A DNA stretch of 64,000 nt from a virus, in the IMG/VR virus record IMGVR_UViG_3300028563_000012, positions 1 through 64,000 of that record; one strand, 5' to 3'. Positions 5,009 to 28,312 of the stretch are shown in pieces (the first letter of the stretch is position 1; each line of letters starts with the position of its first letter). The notes beneath the pieces are model-generated. The model saw only the letters and a list, made by a program, of their open reading frames with translations. It was not told the DNA's origin and ran no database searches. Position numbers and translations under genes: made by a program.

Positions 5009-5488
5009 TTACCTTTCGCTGATCAGGGTGACAGCTGATAACGTGCTGATGCCGAGCAAGACAGCCAACGGTGCGGAGATGTCTGCGCAGCCACGCCATT
5101 TGCCCGGCCTGCCAAGTTCCTTCGCTCCATTGAACCACGTACCATCAGCCGCCAACTTGCCGTAGGGGCCACGATCAATCACGCTCGCATCGAGGCAGAC
5201 ACCATTGCTGTGAACGCACACTTGAACCGGAGTGTTGAGCTTCAGCGTGCGATGAGCGATGCCTGGTGTGAGCGTCGGATCTGCGCCCGTAGCGGTCTTG
5301 GTCTTGGAGTTGACGTCATCGGGCGTCGCATACACCCCAGCCAAGCAAGTCTCGATGCGCTTGCCTGCATGCTTCGCTGCTGCGATGATGGGCCAAAGCA
5401 CGTGGCCTTGTTTGATCGGCTTTGGCTTTGTGCGGTGGTGGTGTCCGGCCGTTGCGCTGGCCAACAACATGAGCAACAAGAAACGCAT
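5009..5488 (-). CDS. RlpA-like double-psi beta-barrel protein with signal peptide (putative lytic transglycosylase)
   Basis: TATG, IAHRTL..NTxVxV, VIDRGPY, DIS; N-terminal MRFLLLMLLASATA. Confidence 0.8.
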   Translation of the reverse strand: MRFLLLMLLASATAGHHHRTKPKPIKQGHVLWPIIAAAKHAGKRIETCLAGVYATPDDVNSKTKTATGADPTLTPGIAHRTLKLNTPVQVCVHSNGVCLDASVIDRGPYGKLAADGTWFNGAKELGRPGKWRGCADISAPLAVLLGISTLSAVTLISER

Positions 5489-5886
5489 CAGGACACAGTA
5501 TTGAGCGGTGTATCCAGTCCGGCCTTGTTGGGCTTGTCTGACATCTTCCGGCCGGACTCGAAGCCGTTGTGATAGGCTCCAGCCTCGACACCAACCACCA
5601 AGTCGTTGATCTTCCTGACTGTTCCCGCGTTATCGCCATCAAGGCGGTAATCATCGATCAACTTCCACAGCTCCGTCAGGGCAGCATAACTTCCAGAACG
5701 AAACGGCAACTCACGCGTCAAGATGTTGTTGATTTCAACGGCCACAGAACGATGGTGAGGGCAAGGATCAGAATGAAAACACAACATGCCAGCAACTTTC
5801 ATCACGCCGCTGGTGAGCTCTTCGCGCGTTTCATCAGCTTCCCTGAATTTCCCCTTCAACCATGCCAGCATGCGACTCATGGACAC
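5488..5886 (-). CDS. Hypothetical protein
   Basis: 132-aa ORF, GGAGG near the start, tiling. Confidence 0.55.
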   Translation of the reverse strand: MSMSRMLAWLKGKFREADETREELTSGVMKVAGMLCFHSDPCPHHRSVAVEINNILTRELPFRSGSYAALTELWKLIDDYRLDGDNAGTVRKINDLVVGVEAGAYHNGFESGRKMSDKPNKAGLDTPLNTVS

Positions 5887-5889
5887 CTC

Positions 5890-6054
5890 CTACATGATTG
5901 TTGCTGAGTCCAATCCTGCCTGGCGCCAACCGGCAGACCATCGCCGCCGGTGCCATGTGTTCGTCTTGTGCGGATTGGATGTGATCGGCTTGCCCTTTTC
6001 ACGGGCAGAATAGCCATCCCCGTATGGATCGCCCTTCCTATCCTGCGGTTTCAC
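5890..6054 (-). CDS. Ribosome modulation factor (Rmf/CrpP-fold)-like small protein
   Basis: GYSAREKG....NPH.....RRRWSAGWRQA parallels the Rmf pattern GY.A...G.....PY.....R..W..GWR.A; GTG start assumed. Confidence 0.6.
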   Translation of the reverse strand: MKPQDRKGDPYGDGYSAREKGKPITSNPHKTNTWHRRRWSAGWRQAGLDSATIM

Positions 6055-6835
6055 TTTGAGTGGCAACTGGCGGTGCCTGTTCTGCTGCTCTCTCCATGGG
6101 AGCTTGAGCAACTTCGGGTGTCTCTTTCACTTCGATCATGGCACGCAACTTCGTCATCAGCGTGCCAAGTTTAGCATCCCAAGCAACCTTGCCTTCACCG
6201 CTCTGGAATTCCTGGCGTTGCTCGCACCAAACCAAGCCGGAGTAAATGCCGACGATGATCTGGTCACGCTGCTTGATGGCCTTCAGCACGCTTTCCTCTT
6301 TCTCAGGATTGCGCATTGAACGTTCCATCTGGGCCACAATCCGCAAGCGCGCGATCTCGTTGTTCTTGTCCAACATGCGCTTGCGCCATTCCGGATGCAT
6401 CTCGCGCACCATCTGCGTCGCCTTGATCTTGGCCTTGCGGTCTGTGTCTGTGTTGGCCCGCTCCAGTTGCGTGCGCAACTCGGCCATGGCACCTTCAAGC
6501 TGCCTGGCGTGAATTGTGGATTGCTCCAACGTTTGACGCAAATCATCGATGGTCGCGTTGCGCTTGGTCAACAAGCCGTCAAGGCCGTGGTTGGACGCTA
6601 TCAGATCTCCCACCTTGTCTTCAAGGCCTTTGCAGACTTCACGTGCGCCGTTCAGGCGTTCCAGCAGCTCTGCCTTGTCAGCTTGAGCGTCATCCGCGGC
6701 CGCGGCCGCGCTTTCCGCCTTTGCTTTTGCTGACTCCACCAAGGCTTTTGCTTCGCGCCCCAGCTTGATCAGTTCGGCTTGCTTTGCCTTGCGCTTGCGG
6801 CGTCGGATCTGGTTGGATGACAGTTGCTTTGCCAT
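6038..6835 (-). CDS. Coiled-coil hypothetical protein
   Basis: Long heptad-rich helical sequence; GGAG RBS. Confidence 0.7.
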   Translation of the reverse strand: MAKQLSSNQIRRRKRKAKQAELIKLGREAKALVESAKAKAESAAAAADDAQADKAELLERLNGAREVCKGLEDKVGDLIASNHGLDGLLTKRNATIDDLRQTLEQSTIHARQLEGAMAELRTQLERANTDTDRKAKIKATQMVREMHPEWRKRMLDKNNEIARLRIVAQMERSMRNPEKEESVLKAIKQRDQIIVGIYSGLVWCEQRQEFQSGEGKVAWDAKLGTLMTKLRAMIEVKETPEVAQAPMERAAEQAPPVATQSETAG

Positions 6836-7337
6836 CGCTTACTCCGCCGCCCCGTGCTTCCGGCTGATGCTCTTGATCAACTCCCACTGGATGAAGTCCG
6901 ACTGATCGTTGTTGATGATCAGAGTCGCCGGTGTCCTCACCTCTTGACCATACAACAGCTGGGTGGTGAACGTCACTTCCGTGATTTTGCCTTCGCGGCG
7001 CGCGCCCTCCTTGGTTTCCACCACGTGGGTGCCGTGTTTCAAATCTTCCAGGTTGATTGTCCAACGAATTGCCATGTGACGTTCCTCCGATTGTAACGCT
7101 ATTTTGTGACGCCGTTTTCGCCGCCGCTGTTGCTTGTGCCTTGTGGCAAGAAGCGCTGCAGATTTCAAAGCCCTTGGGCATCACGTTTTTGCAGACGGGG
7201 CATGTGGCACAGCGGAACCATGTCACGCTGCCAATCTTTCGCTGGAGTCTGAATTCCTCCAGCATGATCTTGTCAGGATAACCACCGGCCGGCGGATCCG
7301 GGATGATATCCTCATCGTCTTCCAGCACGTCGCTCAT
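6690..7337 (-). CDS. Hypothetical Cys-cluster protein; the 3' part overlaps downstream genes
   Basis: First ~85 aa are protein-like (CPVC..CSASC); the rest reads through two other genes. Confidence 0.45.
   Translation of the reverse strand: MSDVLEDDEDIIPDPPAGGYPDKIMLEEFRLQRKIGSVTWFRCATCPVCKNVMPKGFEICSASCHKAQATAAAKTASQNSVTIGGTSHGNSLDNQPGRFETRHPRGGNQGGRAPRRQNHGSDVHHPAVVWSRGEDTGDSDHQQRSVGLHPVGVDQEHQPEARGGGVSDGKATVIQPDPTPQAQGKASRTDQAGARSKSLGGVSKSKGGKRGRGRG
6839..7075 (-). CDS. Hypothetical small beta-barrel protein
   Basis: GGAGG RBS before MAIRWT. Confidence 0.65.
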   Translation of the reverse strand: MAIRWTINLEDLKHGTHVVETKEGARREGKITEVTFTTQLLYGQEVRTPATLIINNDQSDFIQWELIKSISRKHGAAE

Positions 7338-7570
7338 CAGTTGGCCACCTTAGCAATGTCTGGGTTGACGCACAGGGTGTCGCGGATGGCCTTGGCGAGA
7401 TGTTCAGCCGCCTGGATGGCGTCGGCGCGCTCGGGATACTTGCGATTGCTCAGAATCGTGATGGCGTCCGCGACGCTGAACGAGATCTTCCAACCGTCAA
7501 CATGATTCCCAATGACAGCCAATGTGACGGCAGCGTTCTCAGTCGGAGTGGGTGTTTGCTCTTGATCCAT
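7337..7570 (-). CDS. Hypothetical protein
   Basis: 77 aa; TGATG overlap with the next gene. Confidence 0.6.
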   Translation of the reverse strand: MDQEQTPTPTENAAVTLAVIGNHVDGWKISFSVADAITILSNRKYPERADAIQAAEHLAKAIRDTLCVNPDIAKVAN

Positions 7571-8141
7571 GCGCGAGTTCAGATGCTAGTTTCATGTCCT
7601 TGATGAACTCTTCTTTGCGCTTTGGGTCAGCGACGCGTAAAAGGTATGCCGGATGATAGGTGGGAATGGCTGGAATGATTGATCTTTTACCCTTCCACGT
7701 CCAACCAGTTTCCATCTCGGTCCCGCGCATTCGAGTGATGGGAGCATTGCCGCCCGTCAAAGCCCGAAAGGCTGTCGAGCCGAGCAGCAACACCGCTTTG
7801 GGTTGTACGGCTTGTAGCAGCGCATCGAGCCGCGGCGAGCATGCAACCATCTCGCTGTCATGCGGCTGCCGGTTCTGCGGCGGGCGGCAGCCGCAGACGT
7901 TCGTGATGTAGGCGTCCATGGACATGTCCAAGCCTGCCTCAGTGCCAAGCTCGCGCATGAGGCGGCCAGCCTTCCCGATGAACGGGATCCCGCGCTCGTC
8001 TTCTTCAGCACCAGGTGCTTCGCCGATGAGCATCAGGTCACAAGGCACGGGCCCGGTGCCGATCACAACACGTTGGCGAAGTGCGTGGAGCGGGCAACGT
8101 TGGCAATCAGCCCAAAGTGATTCGATACGTTCAATCATCAC
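7539..8141 (-). CDS. udg: Uracil-DNA glycosylase, family 4 (Fe-S)
   Basis: CQRCPL, GEAPGAEE, PFIGKAG, YITNV.GCRPPQNR, HPAYLLR. Confidence 0.93.
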   Translation of the reverse strand: MMIERIESLWADCQRCPLHALRQRVVIGTGPVPCDLMLIGEAPGAEEDERGIPFIGKAGRLMRELGTEAGLDMSMDAYITNVCGCRPPQNRQPHDSEMVACSPRLDALLQAVQPKAVLLLGSTAFRALTGGNAPITRMRGTEMETGWTWKGKRSIIPAIPTYHPAYLLRVADPKRKEEFIKDMKLASELAHGSRANTHSD

Positions 8142-19094: not shown

Positions 19095-22000
19095 CTACGG
19101 TTCGATCACGGTCACAGCCGCTTCGATCTTGTTGTCCAGGAAATATGTGCGTTTTTCCTTGGTCAACTTGAACTTGGCAATGACACCACGATGTAGTATT
19201 TGTTGAAAGGACTCCCAGCTGCTGGCAAAACACAAACATTCGCGGTGCAGCCCGTCTGATCCGATCAACCCCAAAAACCCCATTTCATTGCCCTTCTTGT
19301 CAGTTTTTTGCATCACCCGAACCACAAGCGCTGACATCTTCCATATCCTGTCTTCGCAAATGGGCAACACATGCTTCCCGCCCGGACGCCATCCGTCCCA
19401 CAAGCATAACTCAAGCGGATCAAAACCTGGGCTGGTTGCGCCTTGATCCTCGGCACCAATCTTGGCCTTCAACTCGTCAAGGTCCACAAGAAAGCTGGCA
19501 CGCATGGAGTGGTACTGCTTGTTGATCACGACGTGTCCAGCAACAACGGTGCCAGCGCCGCGCTCCAGCAACGGCCTGTAGATTTCATAATCACTCACAT
19601 CAATCTTCACACGCTGGTTACGCCCGGACATGTCTTCAACATTTATGTTGGCATAACGCTTGCCCCACCCCATCTTGGCTTTGTCTTCATCGCTTGGTTC
19701 CTCACCAGAATGGAAATCGCCAACCTGATTTTGACGCACCTCGATGATCCTGCCCCACATCCAAGCGTCCGGGTTGTCCCAAATCGCCTCATCGTCCATC
19801 TTCATCCAAACGGTGCGCATGCCTTCGATCATGGGCACATACGGGGCCAGCGGATCCTCGCCGCATGCCATCGGGTTGATGCGCTTGGCAATGTCTTCCG
19901 CTACGTCAGCAGGCCACTTCGGAGCAGCCGCAGATGCTCGAATGATGGCACGCAACTTGTCTTGCCAACCTTTGTTGGCTTTGCCGACATGGACCCACAA
20001 CTTTTCCAGGTTCTCATAGAGCCATTTGGTGTTGGGGACCATGCGATCGAATGCGCCACCCTGGATGAGGGCGTTGACCACGCCCTTATGGCAACGGCGG
20101 CGATCGACGCGCTCTGCAAAATCAACGAAGTCCTTGTATGGGCCGGCTGCTGCGATGGCTCGCACTGCGGCCTCGCCAACGCCCTTGATGTTGGATACTG
20201 CTCCGACGATGGCCCCGCCTTCGATGGTCCAGTTGCATGGATCCTTGGAATTGATGTCAGGCATGAGAACATCGATGCCCATACGCTTGCAGGCGCGCAC
20301 CATCCGGATGACCTTGTCGGTATCGGGCTCGACTTTCAACAGAGCCCACATGAACTCCATTGGATAATGGGTCTTCAAGTACATCTCGCGATAGGCAATC
20401 AAGCCGTATGCGACGCTGTGGGCCTTGTTGAATCCGTATGAGCCGAAGAACTTGATTTGTTCGATCAGCTTGGATGCCAACTCGGGCGTCAGCCCATGTT
20501 CGATGGCACCCTTGACGAAGTTCTCGCGCTCCTTGGCTATTGCGTCATCACCGTACTTTTTGGCAATCTTGCGGCGCAAGCTATCAGACGTTGCCGGGCT
20601 GAAACCTGCGACGTCCGTGAAAATCTTCATCACGTGCTCTTGGTAGACGATGACCCCCAACGTGTCCTTGCATATTTCATCCACGAGCGGGTGGATTGAC
20701 ACAATCTTCTTGGGATCCTTCTTGCGCTTCAGGTATTCTGTGGCAAGACCTGAGCGAGCAGTCCCAGGGCGATCCAAGGCGACCATGGCAGACACGTCAT
20801 CAAAACTGGTGAACTCAACACCATCACAAATCTTGTCTGCTGACACCGTGTCGAATTGGAAGATGCCGATGTAGTGGTGGTTGGTGAAGTTGGCCAAAGT
20901 TGGCTTGTCATCGAGTGGCAGTTTAAGCCAATCAATTTCAACCCCATGTCTCTCTGCCACAGCCTCACGGCAAAAACGCATCGCTGACAGGTTGCGAATG
21001 CCTAGTATGTCCATCTTCACCAGGCCAAGGTCGGACACGCCATACATGTCGACCGCAGTCACCACTTTGGGAGTGCCATCCCCTTTCTGGCTGCGAATCT
21101 CCAGCGGCACGACATCGATGAGCGGCACTGGGCTCACCACAACGCCCGCGGCGTGAACCCCGAGTGCTTTGACCTGGCCCTCCAACTTCTTGGCGTACTC
21201 CAAAACCTCTGGATAACGCTCGTTGAAACGCTGGCACACTGGGAATTCCTTGAACGAGTCCTCGATGGTCATGCTGGCGCGTTCATCACCGCTGCTTCGC
21301 TCAACAACGGCATCCACCACAGGTTGGATCTCACGCAGTGGGATGTCCATGATTCGAGCAATATCACGCAAACACCCCTTGCCCGTCAACTTGTTGTTGG
21401 TGCCTATCTGCGATGCGTTGTCTTCACCATAGCGCTTGTGCAGAAACGTGATCACCTCATCCCGGCGGGCATCCTCGAAATCCATGTCAACGTCAGGAAG
21501 ATCAATGCGGTCAGGGCTGAGAAAACGTTCAAACAACAAGCCAAACATGATTGGATCCAAGTCCGTGATGCCGAGCAAGAATGAGACCAAACTACCACCA
21601 GCGGACCCACGAGCTGGGCCGCACTCGATTTTGGCCGCGCGGGCCCATTTGTAAACGTCCCACACCACCAACATGTAACGCGTTACCTTCTGCGCCTCCA
21701 TGCGTTCAAGCTCATAACGCAGCCGGTCCATGTAGATCTTGCGACAATCACCAATGGAGATCCTGCGGCGAGCAGCCTCAGCCACAATCAACCTGTCAAT
21801 GTCGCGCTCTTTCCACCCACGAAGGCAAAGCGAGCGAATGTACTTGTTCTCATCATCCGAGAATTCAGGCGGGATGGACACCTTGGGAACCAGCGCCTTG
21901 AACCTATCGACTTCCAACTTGGCTTGGAGCTTGGATTCCAACTCCATGGTGGTGTCGAGCGCGCCTTGGACCTGCGCGTCGGTCATATAGGGGTGGAACT

Positions 22001-22868
22001 GCCGGAAGCTTTCGGCCATTGCTGCTCTTGGCTTGAGCCAAAAGTCGTGCGTGGTGAACGTCCAACGGTTCGGATCGCTCAAGGTCGTGTGGCTGTGGAG
22101 GCACAGCATTGCCTCTTGGTATTTCCAATCATCCTCTGCGATGTAGTGTGCATCCTGAGTTGCGATCAGTGACATGCCGAAGCGCTTGGACAACGCAATC
22201 GTCGCCTTGTTGACTCTGACTTGGTCTGGCATGTTGTGAGGCATCACCTCGCCATAAAAATCATCGCCAAATGTTTCACGCAAACGCGTAACCTTGTCGA
22301 TGGCACCGCCAGGCTTGCCATCAAGGTAATCACTGCCAATTGAGCCGATCTGGCAACCCGACAACACCACCAATCCCTCGTGATTTGCGAGCAAGCAATC
22401 GAGATCCACGCGTGGCCGCCGATAAAACCCCTTGACCCATCCCAGCGTTGTGACGCGCATCAGGTTCTTCAAACCCACAGAATCTTTGGCCAAGACGGTC
22501 AAGTGATAACGGCCGGTGATGCCCTCGTCATGCTCGAATTTCTTGATGGCCTCCTTGTGAAGCGACTTGGGAAGGTTGTCTGTGACACGGGCCTTCTCTT
22601 CCGGCGTCATGCCGCGGCGCGCCATATCCTTACACAAATACAGCTCAACCCCGTAGATGGGTCGCACAACATCATCCGGGTTTTCTTCGATTTCCTTGTG
22701 CAACCTTGTGAGCTGTCGAACAGTCCCGTGCTCCGTGAAAGCAATGGCTGGTTGCCCCATGGCTTTGGCAGCCGTCATGAAATCATGCATCTTTCCACAG
22801 CCGTCTAGCGTGGAATATTCGCTATGCGTATGGAAATGACAAAAGTCATCAGATTTGACATCGCTCAT
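19095..22868 (-). CDS. dnaE: DNA polymerase III alpha subunit (family C, DnaE)
   Basis: PHP domain HFHTHSEYS.LDG and FTEHG; RGSAGGSLV, LLFERFL, PDVDMDF, HAAGVV, KMDILG, YGFNKAHS; OB folds. Confidence 0.97.
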   Translation of the reverse strand: MSDVKSDDFCHFHTHSEYSTLDGCGKMHDFMTAAKAMGQPAIAFTEHGTVRQLTRLHKEIEENPDDVVRPIYGVELYLCKDMARRGMTPEEKARVTDNLPKSLHKEAIKKFEHDEGITGRYHLTVLAKDSVGLKNLMRVTTLGWVKGFYRRPRVDLDCLLANHEGLVVLSGCQIGSIGSDYLDGKPGGAIDKVTRLRETFGDDFYGEVMPHNMPDQVRVNKATIALSKRFGMSLIATQDAHYIAEDDWKYQEAMLCLHSHTTLSDPNRWTFTTHDFWLKPRAAMAESFRQFHPYMTDAQVQGALDTTMELESKLQAKLEVDRFKALVPKVSIPPEFSDDENKYIRSLCLRGWKERDIDRLIVAEAARRRISIGDCRKIYMDRLRYELERMEAQKVTRYMLVVWDVYKWARAAKIECGPARGSAGGSLVSFLLGITDLDPIMFGLLFERFLSPDRIDLPDVDMDFEDARRDEVITFLHKRYGEDNASQIGTNNKLTGKGCLRDIARIMDIPLREIQPVVDAVVERSSGDERASMTIEDSFKEFPVCQRFNERYPEVLEYAKKLEGQVKALGVHAAGVVVSPVPLIDVVPLEIRSQKGDGTPKVVTAVDMYGVSDLGLVKMDILGIRNLSAMRFCREAVAERHGVEIDWLKLPLDDKPTLANFTNHHYIGIFQFDTVSADKICDGVEFTSFDDVSAMVALDRPGTARSGLATEYLKRKKDPKKIVSIHPLVDEICKDTLGVIVYQEHVMKIFTDVAGFSPATSDSLRRKIAKKYGDDAIAKERENFVKGAIEHGLTPELASKLIEQIKFFGSYGFNKAHSVAYGLIAYREMYLKTHYPMEFMWALLKVEPDTDKVIRMVRACKRMGIDVLMPDINSKDPCNWTIEGGAIVGAVSNIKGVGEAAVRAIAAAGPYKDFVDFAERVDRRRCHKGVVNALIQGGAFDRMVPNTKWLYENLEKLWVHVGKANKGWQDKLRAIIRASAAAPKWPADVAEDIAKRINPMACGEDPLAPYVPMIEGMRTVWMKMDDEAIWDNPDAWMWGRIIEVRQNQVGDFHSGEEPSDEDKAKMGWGKRYANINVEDMSGRNQRVKIDVSDYEIYRPLLERGAGTVVAGHVVINKQYHSMRASFLVDLDELKAKIGAEDQGATSPGFDPLELCLWDGWRPGGKHVLPICEDRIWKMSALVVRVMQKTDKKGNEMGFLGLIGSDGLHRECLCFASSWESFQQILHRGVIAKFKLTKEKRTYFLDNKIEAAVTVIEP

Positions 22869-23326
22869 CGTCTTGACATTGCCCTTCGATGGCGCCGGGC
22901 TCGCGCCTTACCGTGCCAAGCCCCATCAAAGCCGTTGCATTCGTTGCAGCTCAACTTGATCAGACCACGCTTGTGGTCACGTTCGTACATGCGCATGCGG
23001 TGCATCATGTTCATCTTGCGCGGCTCCCAATCACGAACGTTATCGCCATGATCGAAACAGAGCAGCACAGGTGCGCCCTTGCTGTCCATGTCACCAATCC
23101 TGGCACCGCACTCGCCACATTCATTCCCAAGCTCAGCACGCAATCGATCGCGGCGCTCACAAGCCTGCAAGTAAACACGATGTTTCCGCCTTCTCCAATG
23201 GAGCTTGTGATCACGCTTTGGCTTGGTTTTTTCATTGTGGCCGAATTCGAAATCAAGCCCGACACCGCCGAACGTCGAGATGCCGCTGTCATCCGAATCA
23301 GAAACTGGCTGCACGTGTTTCGCCAT
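22865..23326 (-). CDS. HNH-like Zn-binding protein
   Basis: CGECG...FDH...CNECN. Confidence 0.55.
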   Translation of the reverse strand: MAKHVQPVSDSDDSGISTFGGVGLDFEFGHNEKTKPKRDHKLHWRRRKHRVYLQACERRDRLRAELGNECGECGARIGDMDSKGAPVLLCFDHGDNVRDWEPRKMNMMHRMRMYERDHKRGLIKLSCNECNGFDGAWHGKARARRHRRAMSRR

Positions 23327-23900
23327 GAATCATCACCCGTTCGATTATCTCTTCAGGGCTTTGCCCATTCGCAATAATCACCCGGATGTTGCCCGTGGGG
23401 ATGTGGCAAACGACATGATCAATGGCTTTAGCCTCCCAATCACCGACGCGTCCACCGCGTGCCCTGCGCACCTCGTATGGTTGTCGCATCAACACCAAAA
23501 TGGTATGGTTCCCGGACAACAGCTTCACCCAAAGTCGCAGAGCAGCCAAGCCATTCTTGCTCAGCCTTGTCGTGCTCAACCATGGCTCGTTGCCGTAGGA
23601 GCTTGGCGGCATCCCGTCCCACATATCATCATCGTAAGCCAACCCTGAGATCAGCGACCTGTCAAGGATGACGTCGGTGCAATGAGTTGCCCCCAGCAAA
23701 TCGGCAACAACAAGATCCTCGCGCCAGGTATTGACCCGCATGGGGATGTCTTTCAACTCGGGGTATGCGTCGCCGGGCTGGTGGCTGTCGGGTGCGCGCC
23801 TGAATGGGCGGTACACGGGCGCATGGATGAAATTCGCCAAACTCTTGGCGACTGTTCCCTTGCCAACGCCTGATGCGCCTTCGAAAATCACCACTGCCAT
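23298..23900 (-). CDS. P-loop deoxynucleoside monophosphate (thymidylate-type) kinase
   Basis: IFEGASGVGKGT P-loop and ILDRSLIS motif. Confidence 0.8.
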   Translation of the reverse strand: MAVVIFEGASGVGKGTVAKSLANFIHAPVYRPFRRAPDSHQPGDAYPELKDIPMRVNTWREDLVVADLLGATHCTDVILDRSLISGLAYDDDMWDGMPPSSYGNEPWLSTTRLSKNGLAALRLWVKLLSGNHTILVLMRQPYEVRRARGGRVGDWEAKAIDHVVCHIPTGNIRVIIANGQSPEEIIERVMIHGETRAASF

Positions 23901-23904
23901 TGGG

Positions 23905-25101
23905 CTAAAACTCCAAGCAACGTTTGTAGGCGCGCGACAATGATTCCATGGCCATGGCCATGGTTGGCATGCCGATATTCAACGGCGGCGTGATTTTGAT
24001 GGTGCCCGGCCCATCTCTGAACGTTGGGAGCAGCAGGCCCTCGGCCAATGCCTCGCGCTCCAACATGCGACGGTCAACAGGCACATCACAAGCAATCATC
24101 ATGCCGACTGCTCGCACTTGCCCCATGTCTGGGAATGAGTCGCGAGTTTCCAATGCAAACTTGGTGAAGGATCCGACCGAGATCACGCTGTCCAAGTTGC
24201 TTTGATTCTCCAACCAAGAGCACATCACGTTCACGAACGCATTGGACATTGGGTTGCCTCCGAATGTGCTGAAATGGGTGCCGGGCGTGAACGCGTTGCC
24301 CGCGTTGCCACGCGCCAAGGCCAGCCCCACAGGGAAGCCCATGCCGATGCCCTTGGCCAGACAGGTGATGTCGGGCTCAAGCCCAACGCGTTGTGCGTAA
24401 GTCGGTGCGCCAGTGCGTCCCGAGCCCGTCTGAACCTCATCGAAGATGAGCAAGCTGCCAACGCTGTGGGCCATGGCTTGGATGCTCTGCAACACTTCGG
24501 TTTCGTACGGCACGACATCATTGTTACCCATCACAGGTGCCATGATCACCGCGGCCAACGATGGTCCAAGGCTGATGATCATGTCACACATGCGCTCGAT
24601 GGGCGCGTGGATGAAGCCGCCTGGATAGGGGCCCATGCCTTCATAGTGATAAGATGGCCCATCACCCGCAGCAATGGCACCGTACGTCCGGCCGTGAAAG
24701 CCGCCCGACACGGACAAAATGTTGTTCCTTGGCGGGTTTGACAACTTTGCCTGCTTGTAATGGTACAAGCGCGCCATCTTGATGGCAGCTTCCACGGCCT
24801 CGGTTCCGCTATTGCACCAAAACACACGACTCGCGCCCATGAGCTTGCAGACCCGCTCGCTGACATAATTGCGCAATGGGTTGGTGTACAAGTTTGGAGC
24901 ATGGGCACCAAAATGGAAATCGGCCAGACATGACATGGCTTCGTTGATGCTTGCCCAAGACGTTCCCAAAGATGCTGTGCCTGTATCCGTGAACAAGTCG
25001 AGCAGCTTACGGCCGTCTGCGCGTACCAAGTACGGCCCATCAGCCCCAACGATGTTGAAATTTCTGAACTCAACTGTATCCATTAGATGGTTGGCCGTCA
25101 T
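23905..25101 (-). CDS. Class III PLP-dependent aminotransferase (ArgD/OAT-like, divergent)
   Basis: NSGTEAVEAAIK, FHGRT, DEVQTG.GRTG, AKG (PLP lysine), STFGGNP, PPL. Confidence 0.93.
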   Translation of the reverse strand: MTANHLMDTVEFRNFNIVGADGPYLVRADGRKLLDLFTDTGTASLGTSWASINEAMSCLADFHFGAHAPNLYTNPLRNYVSERVCKLMGASRVFWCNSGTEAVEAAIKMARLYHYKQAKLSNPPRNNILSVSGGFHGRTYGAIAAGDGPSYHYEGMGPYPGGFIHAPIERMCDMIISLGPSLAAVIMAPVMGNNDVVPYETEVLQSIQAMAHSVGSLLIFDEVQTGSGRTGAPTYAQRVGLEPDITCLAKGIGMGFPVGLALARGNAGNAFTPGTHFSTFGGNPMSNAFVNVMCSWLENQSNLDSVISVGSFTKFALETRDSFPDMGQVRAVGMMIACDVPVDRRMLEREALAEGLLLPTFRDGPGTIKITPPLNIGMPTMAMAMESLSRAYKRCLEF

Positions 25102-25304: not shown

Positions 25305-26291
25305 TCACTTCCACAGATACGGATCACAGCCCCACAACGCACGATACTCTTCAGCTCTTTCCAACATCTCATCCTGACGAGGGATGATGTTGCGAGTCTT
25401 GCGAAGCGCAACAAGCCGATCATCAGGAGTCGCACCAGGCACATGCTTCGAACCTTCTTCATCGGAGCACAGATACAAGGGGCAAGGGCTGTGTGCGTCG
25501 GATCCGTCCACGCGCCTGGAATTCTCCAGTCGGTAAAGGCAACTGCTGAATTTTCCATCATTCCCCACGCAAGGCGGGTGAACGATTTTGCGAAACATCG
25601 GGTGCACCTTTTCGGCAAGCTCGTTCACGATGCCGGTAATGATCGGGCCCCAAAGCCCCATCTGAAGGATGTAGCAACCGCGCTTCCCCAAGATGTGGAG
25701 CAAGGCTTGAAGCGTCAACTTCCAGCTGATGCGGTGTTGGGCGCCGAGCGGGATGAGGTCACGCGCATCTTCCATGGGCACCCCGGCTGCCACCAAATCC
25801 TTGTAGGCATCTTGGATAAGGTGCATGGTTGACACGAATCGATTCACAGCAAGGAATGAATCACCATCCGGACGCTTGCATGTTTTCCCCTTCAGCGTCT
25901 CGGGCACGCGATACATCCCGCGATCCGCAAACGTGCTCATGTCCTGGATGCGCATCGATTGCGACCACCAGGTTGACGTGGCAATGTCCGGAATGGTATC
26001 CACGCCATAGTTGTCGCCAGCGCGGGCGCCAATTCGATGTCGTACCATTTGCTCCCGGAACGAGACACTGACGCCCTCCAGCATGAAGGTGAACTCAATG
26101 TCTTCTCCCACGGGGATTTGCTGCCGGATGACTTGCCAAAACAGCTCTTCCAGCTTGGAATGCGGCACGGTGTCGCGGACTTCCTTGATGGACAACGGCA
26201 CCGGGCCGTCAACTTTGCTGGCTTCCCAGAGCAGCCAGACGGTTGCCAACGGATCGGGCGTAGACGAAACAAGCGTGACTTTCGGTTTCAT
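25305..26291 (-). CDS. thyX: Flavin-dependent thymidylate synthase (ThyX)-family protein, divergent
   Basis: E...FTF..EGVS..FREQMVRHR, SQSMR, GVPMEDARDLIP, ILGKR. Confidence 0.85.
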   Translation of the reverse strand: MKPKVTLVSSTPDPLATVWLLWEASKVDGPVPLSIKEVRDTVPHSKLEELFWQVIRQQIPVGEDIEFTFMLEGVSVSFREQMVRHRIGARAGDNYGVDTIPDIATSTWWSQSMRIQDMSTFADRGMYRVPETLKGKTCKRPDGDSFLAVNRFVSTMHLIQDAYKDLVAAGVPMEDARDLIPLGAQHRISWKLTLQALLHILGKRGCYILQMGLWGPIITGIVNELAEKVHPMFRKIVHPPCVGNDGKFSSCLYRLENSRRVDGSDAHSPCPLYLCSDEEGSKHVPGATPDDRLVALRKTRNIIPRQDEMLERAEEYRALWGCDPYLWK

Positions 26292-26309: not shown

Positions 26310-27239
26310 TCATATATTTGCCAACGCTGCTTTGATGTCGTCCCAATTGCGACACCCAAGTACGTTGGCATGTTTGAAGTTCTCTATGTCATCCCACCCC
26401 GGCAGTTTCAACACCTTCACACCGATGGCTGCCAATTCGGATGCATATTTGTGCCGATCCTCGATCATCGCGATGATTCGAGCAGGTTGCATCTGACGGA
26501 CGGCATCGGCCTTGTCGTTGGTGAAAATGATATGATCTTGACCCAATCCTACCTTGTCACACCATTCCATGGTGTCTGCGTACACGCGGGTGTGCCGGCG
26601 GTACGGTCTTGACGTCACCATGATGAGGCGCCGATCCCTAACAGCATGGGCGCAATATTCATGAGTTCGGCCGCGCCATCTCGAAAGCGTGTTGACGGCA
26701 CCAGAAATGGTCCCAAGCGTCAGGAATCCACCCTCAGCATAGAAGCGCTCTTTGGCCTTTTCTTGTTCCAAGGAGCCTTCGGGCGCGCCGTTGATGTCGA
26801 TGCCGCGAGCAGCAGTCCAAGCCGGAAAGCCATGCGCCCAATCAGCCACGCAATCGTCCAAGTCGCAGAGCAACACGTCAACATCGCGCAAGCTGTCACA
26901 TTGCGCCTTCCATTTGGCGTCAACCACCATGGTCTTGCGATTGAACTCAACCAACATCATCTCGGGTGTCACCCCGTGCAATGCCATCAGCGCAACGAGG
27001 TATTTCATCACGTCAATGCCGTCTTCCGCAACGGCGGCAGGGTGACGCTTGACAGCCTTCATGATGATGTGATACTTGTCGATGTCCAAGCGCTTTTGAA
27101 GCTCGCCAAGCTCCTCATACATCCCAAGGATCAGTTCCTTGGTCAGCGCGCTCTTATCATCGTCTGACAATCCTTCCCATGAATGCCAGAGAGATTGCTG
27201 CTCAATTTGCCGCCGCCATATTTTTTCCAAGTCTCCCAC
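26310..27239 (-). CDS. Fusion of a MazG/dimeric dUTPase-like pyrophosphatase and an HAD 5'(3')-deoxynucleotidase
   Basis: N-terminal EELGEL...EDGIDVMKYL; C-terminal DLDDCVAD, VTSR, K, IEDR (HAD motifs I-IV). Confidence 0.8.
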   Translation of the reverse strand: MGDLEKIWRRQIEQQSLWHSWEGLSDDDKSALTKELILGMYEELGELQKRLDIDKYHIIMKAVKRHPAAVAEDGIDVMKYLVALMALHGVTPEMMLVEFNRKTMVVDAKWKAQCDSLRDVDVLLCDLDDCVADWAHGFPAWTAARGIDINGAPEGSLEQEKAKERFYAEGGFLTLGTISGAVNTLSRWRGRTHEYCAHAVRDRRLIMVTSRPYRRHTRVYADTMEWCDKVGLGQDHIIFTNDKADAVRQMQPARIIAMIEDRHKYASELAAIGVKVLKLPGWDDIENFKHANVLGCRNWDDIKAALANI

Positions 27240-27310: not shown

Positions 27311-28312
27311 TCAGAAGCGTTGATCATGTGCCCACTGAATCATCTTTGTCAATGACTTTTCGGCAGTGGAGCGCGGATCCCATTCGGCGAAGCGTCCAAG
27401 CATGAGCCAGTTCTTCGGCAACACCAATGGGCCGGGCAACGGTTTGAGGTGCCCATTCAACACCCTTGGCTCTGACAATGTCTCCTGTACAAACATGTCG
27501 CGATCGGAACGATGCGAAAGCAGCGGCATCAAATCATCGGTGTCGAGTGGCTTGGGCGCATCGGGCTTGCCCCAAGGGATCTCAAGTTGGGCCGTGGTCG
27601 GACTCGTCTTGGTGATCCGTGACACGGTCGAAGCCAGCGGCGTGTACAGGTAATCCCACCACATGTCGGTTTGGATGCCGCTAACGTCCACAATGCTGAG
27701 CTTGTTGCAAGACGTGTCCGGGATGCCCGATTGGACGGTGAAAGGCACAATCTTCCTGAGAACGGGCAGCGGCAGCGTGTTGATCAAGAAATCATAAGGC
27801 ACATTTCGATCATGGACCGTGACGCTTTTGGCATCAACCCGTCGCACCCGAGCGAAGGTGTGAACCTTGCAAGACTCCTCGGCTTGTTTTGCCAGAGCAG
27901 CAACCACGACCGCATTATCACACCGAGCCGACCAATTGTGCTTCGACCCAGGATCATTCATGCAGTCGGCACGAAACCCTTCCAGTGATTTCCTCGTTTT
28001 CTTCCAGTGTGCCGTCTGAATCTGCAACCGATCCAAGGTGCTCATCCCCATGAGACACTCCGGATGGCTCTTTGCAACTCCGTCAATGTAAATGGCCCCA
28101 CGCGGCAGATGGAAACTGTAATGGATCCCCAAAGCGTCCAACATGTCTGACGCGTCCTTGGTCGCCCGCAGGTACTTCAGACCACCAGCCGCGAACGTTC
28201 CGCCCAATTTGTCGCCGGCCTCAATCAGCGTGACATCGACTCCGCCCTTGTTTTTCAAGACATGGGCCGCAATCAAGCCCGAGATCCCGCCACCCAAAAT
28301 TACAACTCTCAT
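27311..28312 (-). CDS. FAD-dependent oxidoreductase (amine oxidase / UDP-galactopyranose mutase-like fold)
   Basis: VVILGGGISGL..A, IEA...LGG, YD.LINTLPL, LGRFAEW. Confidence 0.85.
   Translation of the reverse strand: MRVVILGGGISGLIAAHVLKNKGGVDVTLIEAGDKLGGTFAAGGLKYLRATKDASDMLDALGIHYSFHLPRGAIYIDGVAKSHPECLMGMSTLDRLQIQTAHWKKTRKSLEGFRADCMNDPGSKHNWSARCDNAVVVAALAKQAEESCKVHTFARVRRVDAKSVTVHDRNVPYDFLINTLPLPVLRKIVPFTVQSGIPDTSCNKLSIVDVSGIQTDMWWDYLYTPLASTVSRITKTSPTTAQLEIPWGKPDAPKPLDTDDLMPLLSHRSDRDMFVQETLSEPRVLNGHLKPLPGPLVLPKNWLMLGRFAEWDPRSTAEKSLTKMIQWAHDQRF

Follow-up and report, generated by a model that had tools for sequence, protein, structure and literature searches.

In the thymidylate synthase ThyX of Thermotoga maritima (TM0449) the conserved His53 packs against the pterin once the ternary complex has formed, and against the reduced flavin while the enzyme is at rest. 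Asn85 and the conserved Tyr91 hold it in place through hydrogen bonds; mutation of Tyr91 makes flavin oxidation about 1000-fold slower (PMC11940539). PolB, the C5-methylase for uridine monophosphate (UMP) and deoxyuridine monophosphate (dUMP) in polyoxin biosynthesis (PDB 4P5A/4P5B), is a ThyX paralogue in a secondary pathway, with its substrate handling altered via active-site loops. PolB keeps the tyrosine (Tyr99), is 38% identical to ThyX, uses methylenetetrahydrofolate and makes a methyl product. Its Tyr99Ala mutant is nearly inactive (PMC5003785). Here we analyse a ThyX-like phage gene in which His53, Tyr91 and Asn85 are all replaced. It lies at 25305-26291 on the minus strand of a 64,000-nucleotide window, which is the start of an IMG/VR virus record that spans 102,534 bp and is rated complete. 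The genes of the window are nearly all on the minus strand, as are all window features given below.

In the DNA of phage SP-15 thymine is replaced by 5-(4',5'-dihydroxypentyl)uracil, a base that is formed on nucleotides and takes up label from ribose, and one of the two Thy1 genes of this phage was proposed as a non-dTMP synthase, i.e. one whose product is not thymidylate (dTMP) (PMC5977210). Thymine-free phages remove dTMP, PBS1 via an enzyme of the deoxyribonucleotidase family (PF06941) and DSS3_VP1 via a YfbR-type HD protein (PF12917) (PMC12697855). In the dUMP hydroxymethylase pathways of M6, ViI, PaMx11 and PhiW-14, a relative of thymidylate synthase (TS) makes a non-thymine C5-substituted dUMP before replication, and pyridoxal phosphate and flavin enzymes sculpt the chain, mostly after replication on the DNA via 5-HMUDK and aGPT-Pplase. 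The TS relative of these pathways has the ThyA fold, and to our knowledge this holds for all known routes from a TS relative to thymine replacement.

The product of the gene is a genuine ThyX-fold protein that has been heavily rebuilt, in a form typical of a large group of uncultured phages. We give about even odds, roughly 0.5, to the reading that it is a flavoenzyme modifying C5 of dUMP, with a product that is not dTMP, and that it feeds a pre-replicative replacement of thymine. The first-pass annotation of this DNA had suggested a donor other than methylenetetrahydrofolate or a product other than dTMP, and the evidence for such a product is circumstantial: the His53-Tyr91-Asn85 triad is replaced, the protein scores below the TIGR02170 cut-off, the gene belongs to a conserved module, and the family is accompanied by phosphatases of kinds shown to remove dTMP in thymine-free phages.

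Fold and active site of the ThyX-like protein

The open reading frame (ORF) is intact and encodes 328 aa. The protein matches Pfam Thy1 (PF02511) with an E-value of 1e-17 and 65 bits (gathering cut-off 24.8), over residues 49-206 only, and also PHROG 85 (thymidylate synthase). An AlphaFold2 monomer built with 33 homologues as input has a mean predicted local distance difference test score (pLDDT) of 86. The top Foldseek matches of this model are solved ThyX structures (E 3e-8, probability 1.0). VIA gives Z-scores of 11-11.7 over ~190-200 residues, and its matches are the ThyX of T. thermophilus, T. maritima (Z ~11), H. pylori, M. tuberculosis and PBCV-1, and also PolB (Z 10.4-11.0). The sequence identity to T. 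maritima ThyX is ~18-19%, and against the NCBIfam thyX equivalog TIGR02170 the protein reaches 54.3 bits in two stretches, below the cut-off of 87.9. Phmmer with the single protein found no PDB sequence at E<=0.01, so a family profile was needed for alignment to the PDB chains.

A search of 5.8 billion proteins gave at least 361 homologues (90% clustering) at 47-61% identity, all of them metagenomic, with many contigs of 90-116 kb among their sources. Phmmer was also run on 1.84 billion representatives clustered at 50% identity; it matched 171 of them at E<=1e-30, rising to 290 at E<=1e-10 and to no more than 599 at E<=1e-3. From these counts we conclude that the family forms a group of its own, well apart from canonical ThyX and from most other members of the superfamily. 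Megablast with the 19-30 kb part of the window had no match in 50,697 phage records, and by tblastn against isolates the protein is at most 28% identical to any, and the five-gene module described below was found in none. The first-pass annotation had called the protein a ThyX paralogue, which is incorrect: the genome has one PF02511 gene, which is its only Thy1-family gene, and no match to ThyA (PF00303). Five complete relatives (105-116 kb) also have the ThyX-like gene as their sole TS-like gene and no ThyA match.

For residue mapping, the family profile and a phage ThyX were each aligned with the T. maritima chains by HMMER (chain numbers equal native numbers + 12), and column statistics were obtained from 121 family members. 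The motifs RHR, S-x-R and E-x-A-R are retained, as had been read from the sequence before. R84-H85-R86 (26034-26042) is the FAD/dUMP-binding motif, where FAD is flavin adenine dinucleotide, and corresponds to Arg78-His79-Arg80. In the segment S110-Q111-S112-M113-R114-I115 (25947-25964), S112 and R114 correspond to Ser88 and Arg90. R177 of E174-D175-A176-R177 (25761-25772) is the equivalent of Arg147, a ligand of the dUMP phosphate, and R204 of K203-R204-G205-C206 (25674-25685) is that of Arg174, while S25, Q81 and Q210 stand for Ser30, Gln75 and Gln180. The FAD and dUMP ligands (equivalents of Arg78/His79/Arg80, Ser88, Arg90, Arg147, Arg174 and Gln75) are invariant or nearly so: RHR, W109, S110, S112, R114, E174, R177, H199, R204, C206, Q210, C241, C251 and C270 are found in 121/121 members, and S25 is invariant as well, while Q81 is present in 116/121.

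The folate-site histidine is gone, as the first-pass annotation had suggested. In QQIPVGED (residues 57-64, 26100-26123) Q58 stands at His53, E63 at Glu58 and D64 at His59. The position of Q58 was obtained by a gapless count back from the aligned E-[HD] pair, and it agrees with the model, in which residues 44-56 form a helix and 66-75 a strand, with a loop between them. With I115 at Tyr91 and W109 at Asn85, the whole triad of T. maritima is replaced. S110 corresponds to Glu86, H199 to Asn169, and T193 and Q195 (of T193-L194-Q195) to Asn163 and Arg165; His178 is replaced too. The strings QQIPVGED, SMRI (residues 112-115) and TLQ (residues 193-195) read as given in the first-pass annotation.

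An insertion in the active-site loop covers residues 87-109 (25965-26033), in which G88, G96, D98, P101, S106 and W109 are invariant or nearly so. The first-pass annotation had noticed it, with a spacing of 22 residues; the insertion is present, but RHR and SQSMR are separated by 23 residues, against 5 in T. maritima, and the insertion is therefore of 18 residues. The short-spacing motif RHR-x7-S-x-R-Y is absent: 25 residues lie between RHR and S112 (7 in T. maritima), and the tyrosine reads I115. PolB also has altered loops, but it is much closer to ThyX than the present family, whose insertion is at another place. The insertion is the sole low-confidence part of the monomer model, with pLDDT below 50 and disorder at residues 85-108. 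This is expected, as in ThyX, a homotetramer with its active sites between subunits, that loop closes the active site at the subunit interface.

Across the family, Ile occupies the Tyr91 column in 120/121 members and Trp the Asn85 column in 121/121. The His53 column is mixed, with 60 Arg, 27 Lys, 22 His, 5 Asn, 4 Gly and 3 Gln; it is basic in 90% and His in 18%. The His59 column is His in 86/121 members and Asp in only 2/121, and the Asn163 column is Asn in 118/121, with Thr in the window protein alone. D64 and T193 are thus traits of a subclade, shared in part with the nearest relative, P0002. What defines the family is the loss of Tyr91, Asn85 and Arg165, an RHR-to-S spacing of 23-39 residues, and a C-terminal extension of ~120 aa with four cysteines.

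The extension and its cysteines had not been mentioned in the first-pass annotation. The Pfam match stops at residue 206, and the extension (~residues 211-328, 25308-25661), which lies beyond the Thy1 core, is modelled with confidence as helical. It carries C241, C251 and C270, a candidate metal site together with C206, the first of the four invariant cysteines, which takes the place of Asp176. The 18-residue insertion and the 120-aa four-cysteine extension set the protein apart from T. maritima ThyX, as does the place of its gene among those for an aminotransferase, an FAD enzyme and a hydrolase of deoxynucleoside triphosphates and monophosphates (dNTP/dNMP).

Among isolates the closest match is LIS04_124, a Thy1 protein from Listeria phage LIS04 (SP-15 species group), with 27.7% identity and an E-value of 7e-20. 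It belongs with SP-15 gp130 to the Thy1 paralogues of SP-15-type phages and has the motifs REQMVR and W-[ST]-Q-[ST]-x-R in common with the present protein. LIS04_124 differs in having RSK for RHR and in lacking both the insertion and the cysteine motif, so the relationship is distant, and its function is hypothesised only (PMC5977210). The protein annotated as ThyX in LIS04 (L041:226-1341, 371 aa) reads RSK for RHR and WTQTSRT at the S-x-R-Y segment; it, too, is probably no standard ThyX, a point of interest for how dihydroxypentyluracil is made.

Two other phage proteins share the losses. Pseudomonas phage PB1 gp61 (a Pbunavirus 'ThyX' with RTR and TSRA) and the ThyX of Vibrio phage PVA7 (RNR, TMRI) both lack His53 and Tyr91, and PB1 gp61 also has a C-terminal extension with R-x-C...P-x-C...C...C, in an alignment covering 98% of the query. 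The substitutions are therefore not unique to the family. Unlike the family, both proteins lack RHR and the insertion, have 23-26% identity and lie outside the module, and they are ThyX by annotation. The same substitutions in a proven ThyX would speak against the first-pass annotation; they occur in these annotated proteins, but none of the characterised ThyX enzymes compared shares them, and PB1 gp61 and PVA7 neither refute nor support its claim.

A different substrate (dCMP, UMP or a modified nucleotide), or a role as a non-catalytic subunit that binds nucleotide or flavin, would fit the change of Glu86, Asn85 and Tyr91, all in the substrate-recognition peptide. PolB shows that ThyX paralogues can shift their nucleotide specificity (PMC5003785), and structures of the C. 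glutamicum ThyX are titled as not required for thymidylate synthesis. We consider this the most improbable of the readings. No member of the alignment departs from the phosphate ligands or from the equivalent of Arg174, which polarises uracil. The kinase next door resembles Tmk, the phosphatase belongs to a kind that prefers dUMP and dTMP, and active-site motifs under such strong purifying conservation point to catalysis.

The module next to DnaE

The synteny was studied in 39 related IMG/VR loci, using BLASTP of the window genes against their ORFs. In ~25 of 38 loci, at 25-50% identity, we find a fixed block consisting of an FAD enzyme, a 309-aa MazG-HAD fusion, the ThyX-like protein, a class-III aminotransferase, a 200-aa kinase and DnaE. 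We found no published account of such a module in literature searches that paired ThyX with aminotransferase or MazG in the context of phage DNA modification.

The fusion (26310-27239, 309 aa) combines a MazG-like NTP pyrophosphohydrolase with a HAD protein similar to 5'(3')-deoxyribonucleotidases, as identified by motif alignment and PDB profile matches. Its N-terminal half has the EExxE/DxxK metal motifs and matches MazG-like proteins at E 1e-4, and its C-terminal half has the DxD...K...D HAD motifs and matches the cdN/mdN 5'(3')-deoxyribonucleotidases at E 5e-6; Pfam alone finds no family in it. Such a fusion would take a dNTP down to the nucleoside. If thymidylate is its target, it would form a futile pair with a true dTMP synthase beside it. 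Each of the two genomic contexts in which the ThyX-like gene occurs holds one phosphatase of the kinds used by thymine-free phages, the mdN-like HAD in the DnaE-type loci and a YfbR-like HD protein in the PolA-type loci.

On the other side of the ThyX-like gene, the kinase (23298-23900, ~200 aa) matches phrog_761/2107 and has a P-loop and the Tmk signature LDRSxPSAxAYG. It is adjacent and syntenic, and it is the sole kinase seen in the module. A Tmk-like kinase would place the pathway at the nucleotide level. The module is like the ThyA-type hydroxymethylase pathways in pairing a TS relative with aminotransferase and flavin enzymes, but it has a ThyX-type enzyme and a Tmk-like kinase, and thus appears to work on nucleotides.

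The FAD-binding enzyme (27311-28312) has the fold shared by UDP-galactopyranose mutase (UGM), protoporphyrinogen oxidase (PPO) and amine oxidases. Its sequence matches in Pfam and the PDB are confined to the Rossmann motif. With its AlphaFold2 model (pLDDT 85) Foldseek lists UGM first (TMq 0.73), then PPO and amine oxidases, and the fold search did not separate these. Its C-terminal end is a conserved GRFAxWDPRxTxD motif, which we take to resemble the C-terminal motif of UGM. The flavin N5 of UGM is a nucleophile, as in ThyX.

The aminotransferase (23905-25101) is of class III (omega type; Pfam Aminotran_3, E 5e-67). Its top NCBIfam matches are of the acetylornithine type, with ornithine, putrescine and GABA types also among the best, all under their cut-offs. 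That this enzyme and the FAD enzyme are locked to the ThyX-like gene is unexplained by plain dTMP synthesis. The first-pass annotation had connected the neighbouring enzymes with a carbon donor other than folate, a larger aldehyde. In detail, the aldehyde would be supplied by the aminotransferase from an omega-amine such as ornithine, putrescine or GABA, or by the FAD enzyme, would be transferred via a flavin N5-iminium and would leave a multi-carbon chain on C5 of dUMP. Such a donor is attractive because class-III aminotransferases interconvert omega-amines and aldehydes and ThyX takes free formaldehyde via a flavin carbinolamine (titles of PDB 7NDW and 7NDZ). It would also suit the loss of the folate-stacking histidine and its partners, the dominance of basic residues in that column and the conserved insertion that reshapes the active-site loop, and SP-15 offers a parallel with its ribose-labelled pentyl chain on uracil at the nucleotide level and its Thy1 paralogue (PMC5977210). 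We still regard it as unlikely. The proposal is purely inferential, no ThyX relative is known to take an aldehyde beyond formaldehyde, the aminotransferase might just as well come into play once the ThyX-like protein has acted, and the PolA-type members lack the aminotransferase and lie beside a radical-SAM/SPASM gene instead. There is likewise only a small chance that the enzyme is a C5-alkyl transferase that passes the whole aldehyde chain to dUMP, with a long-chain 5-substituted dUTP fully replacing dTTP in a widespread clade of ~100-kb phages. If this were true, the pentyl chain of SP-15-type DNA would be accounted for by the same chemistry.

A DnaE-type replicative polymerase (19095-22868; Pfam DNA_pol3_alpha, PHP and finger) lies immediately downstream of the module and is syntenic in 22 loci. 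The flanking genes belong to replication and recombination: SbcCD-like, RecA, HU-like, sigma-like, primase and DnaB-like helicase. Ribonucleotide reductase, dCMP deaminase, trimeric dUTPase and ThyA were not found in the 102.5-kb genome, where some ORFs are unannotated, so the module is the only nucleotide-metabolism gene set identified. The DnaE genes of relatives are ~3.8-6.0 kb long (L016:9939-15911, L005:10863-15734, L003:11092-15804), compared with 19095-22868 in the window, and this spread suggests inteins or other insertions in the polymerase too.

Proposed reaction and its product

We infer the following scheme for an enzyme whose product is not dTMP. An active ThyX-fold flavoenzyme would bind FAD and dUMP as ThyX does and would release no dTMP, forming the first committed step of the pathway. 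A carbon unit would be taken up at N5 of the reduced FAD, and dUMP, polarised by R204, would attack it. With the network of His53, Tyr91 and Asn85 replaced, the exocyclic-methylene (or alkylidene) intermediate may be captured by water or an amine rather than reduced, and the simplest product would be 5-hydroxymethyl-dUMP. The FAD enzyme and the omega-aminotransferase could then remodel the side chain, e.g. from CH2OH to CHO to CH2NH2, and the Tmk-like kinase would phosphorylate the product for the phage DnaE, while the MazG-deoxyribonucleotidase fusion would drain dTTP and dTMP.

Several points weigh against this scheme. The family is known from sequence, models and gene order alone. In six complete genomes the ThyX-like gene is the only TS-like gene, as an ordinary dTMP synthase would be, none of the residues that bind dUMP or FAD has been lost, and His still stands in the His53 column of 18% of the members. 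The invariant W109 and H199, at Asn85 and Asn169, could rebuild the pterin site or replace the lost residues. The MazG-HAD fusion could act on dUTP and dUMP. Phage ThyX genes often adjoin MazG and HD genes in phages that are not known for modified DNA. The proposed conversion of CH2OH to CHO to CH2NH2 is weak, because the UGM/PPO/amine-oxidase fold is not that of a typical alcohol oxidase.

A second reading seems to us possible but clearly less probable than a non-dTMP product: the protein may be a normal ThyX that makes dTMP and comes from a divergent lineage of phages, in which W109, H199, the basic column 58 and the insertion take over from His53, Tyr91 and Asn85, and the neighbours are general pool enzymes (a supplier of dUMP from dUTP, a phage Tmk and unrelated auxiliary genes). 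Beyond the absence of another TS-like gene and the conserved ligands, it gains from the annotated PB1 gp61 and PVA7, which do without the same two residues, one of them with a cysteine-rich extension, and from inteins at active-site motifs of several members, as inteins are typical of essential replication and nucleotide enzymes. It leaves unexplained, however, why the omega-aminotransferase and the FAD enzyme stay linked to the gene across loci of 25-50% identity and why a dNMP-destroying phosphatase of the deoxyribonucleotidase type is fused to the adjacent MazG. The score under the thyX equivalog cut-off also speaks against it, PB1 gp61 and PVA7 are ThyX by annotation only, and every ThyX in which Tyr91 or its counterpart has been mutated is severely impaired (PMC11940539, PMC5003785).

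Phage DNA with plain deoxyuridine was set aside, given a conserved, apparently catalytic ThyX-like gene, no dCTP/dCMP deaminase, and a uracil-DNA glycosylase in the PolA-type relatives.

If the product is not dTMP, a pathway to hypermodified DNA would for the first time start from a ThyX-fold enzyme that makes a non-thymine pyrimidine, and flavin N5-iminium chemistry would no longer be limited to methylation. As the family has many members, all of them in uncultured phages, environmental viromes could often contain a DNA base that has yet to be described. Modified DNA of this sort withstands restriction enzymes and is a problem for some sequencing chemistries, which matters for metagenomics, and the new enzymes could serve for DNA labelling. 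If the protein is a plain dTMP synthase, then His53 and Tyr91, treated as key catalytic residues and anchors for drug design, would be dispensable in a natural ThyX.

PolA-type loci and inteins

Some 10 loci do not have the DnaE-type module, and here the ThyX-like gene is directly upstream of a family-A polymerase. It is preceded by genes for a radical-SAM/SPASM protein, a YfbR-like HD 5'-deoxynucleotidase, a nucleoside 2-deoxyribosyltransferase-like protein and the uracil-DNA glycosylase (genes of this cluster are at L020:2215-2781, 5288-5860, 5809-6462 and 6778-7800, and L025:6552-7672). The deoxyribosyltransferase-like protein is possibly a dNMP N-glycosidase.

Two of the loci without the module have a second Thy1 paralogue of 302 aa, at L023:5742-6650 and L031:319-1227. 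It reads HRH for RHR and SQSHQ for SQSMR, shares the cysteines as R-x-C...P-C...C...C-P, and has an extra CC-x-x-C-x-x-C tail. In L031 the order is this HRH-type paralogue, a radical-SAM/SPASM gene, the ThyX-like gene and PolA.

Inteins with HNH homing endonucleases occur in several proteins of the family, 450-870 aa long, exactly at the active-site motifs KRG|C and SQ|S. The site G205|C206 is used in P0124, P0229, P0258 and P0163, the site Q111|S112 in P0127, P0128 and P0163, which carries two inteins, and the site W109|S110 in P0205. The +1 residues of these inteins are the invariant C206, S112 or S110.

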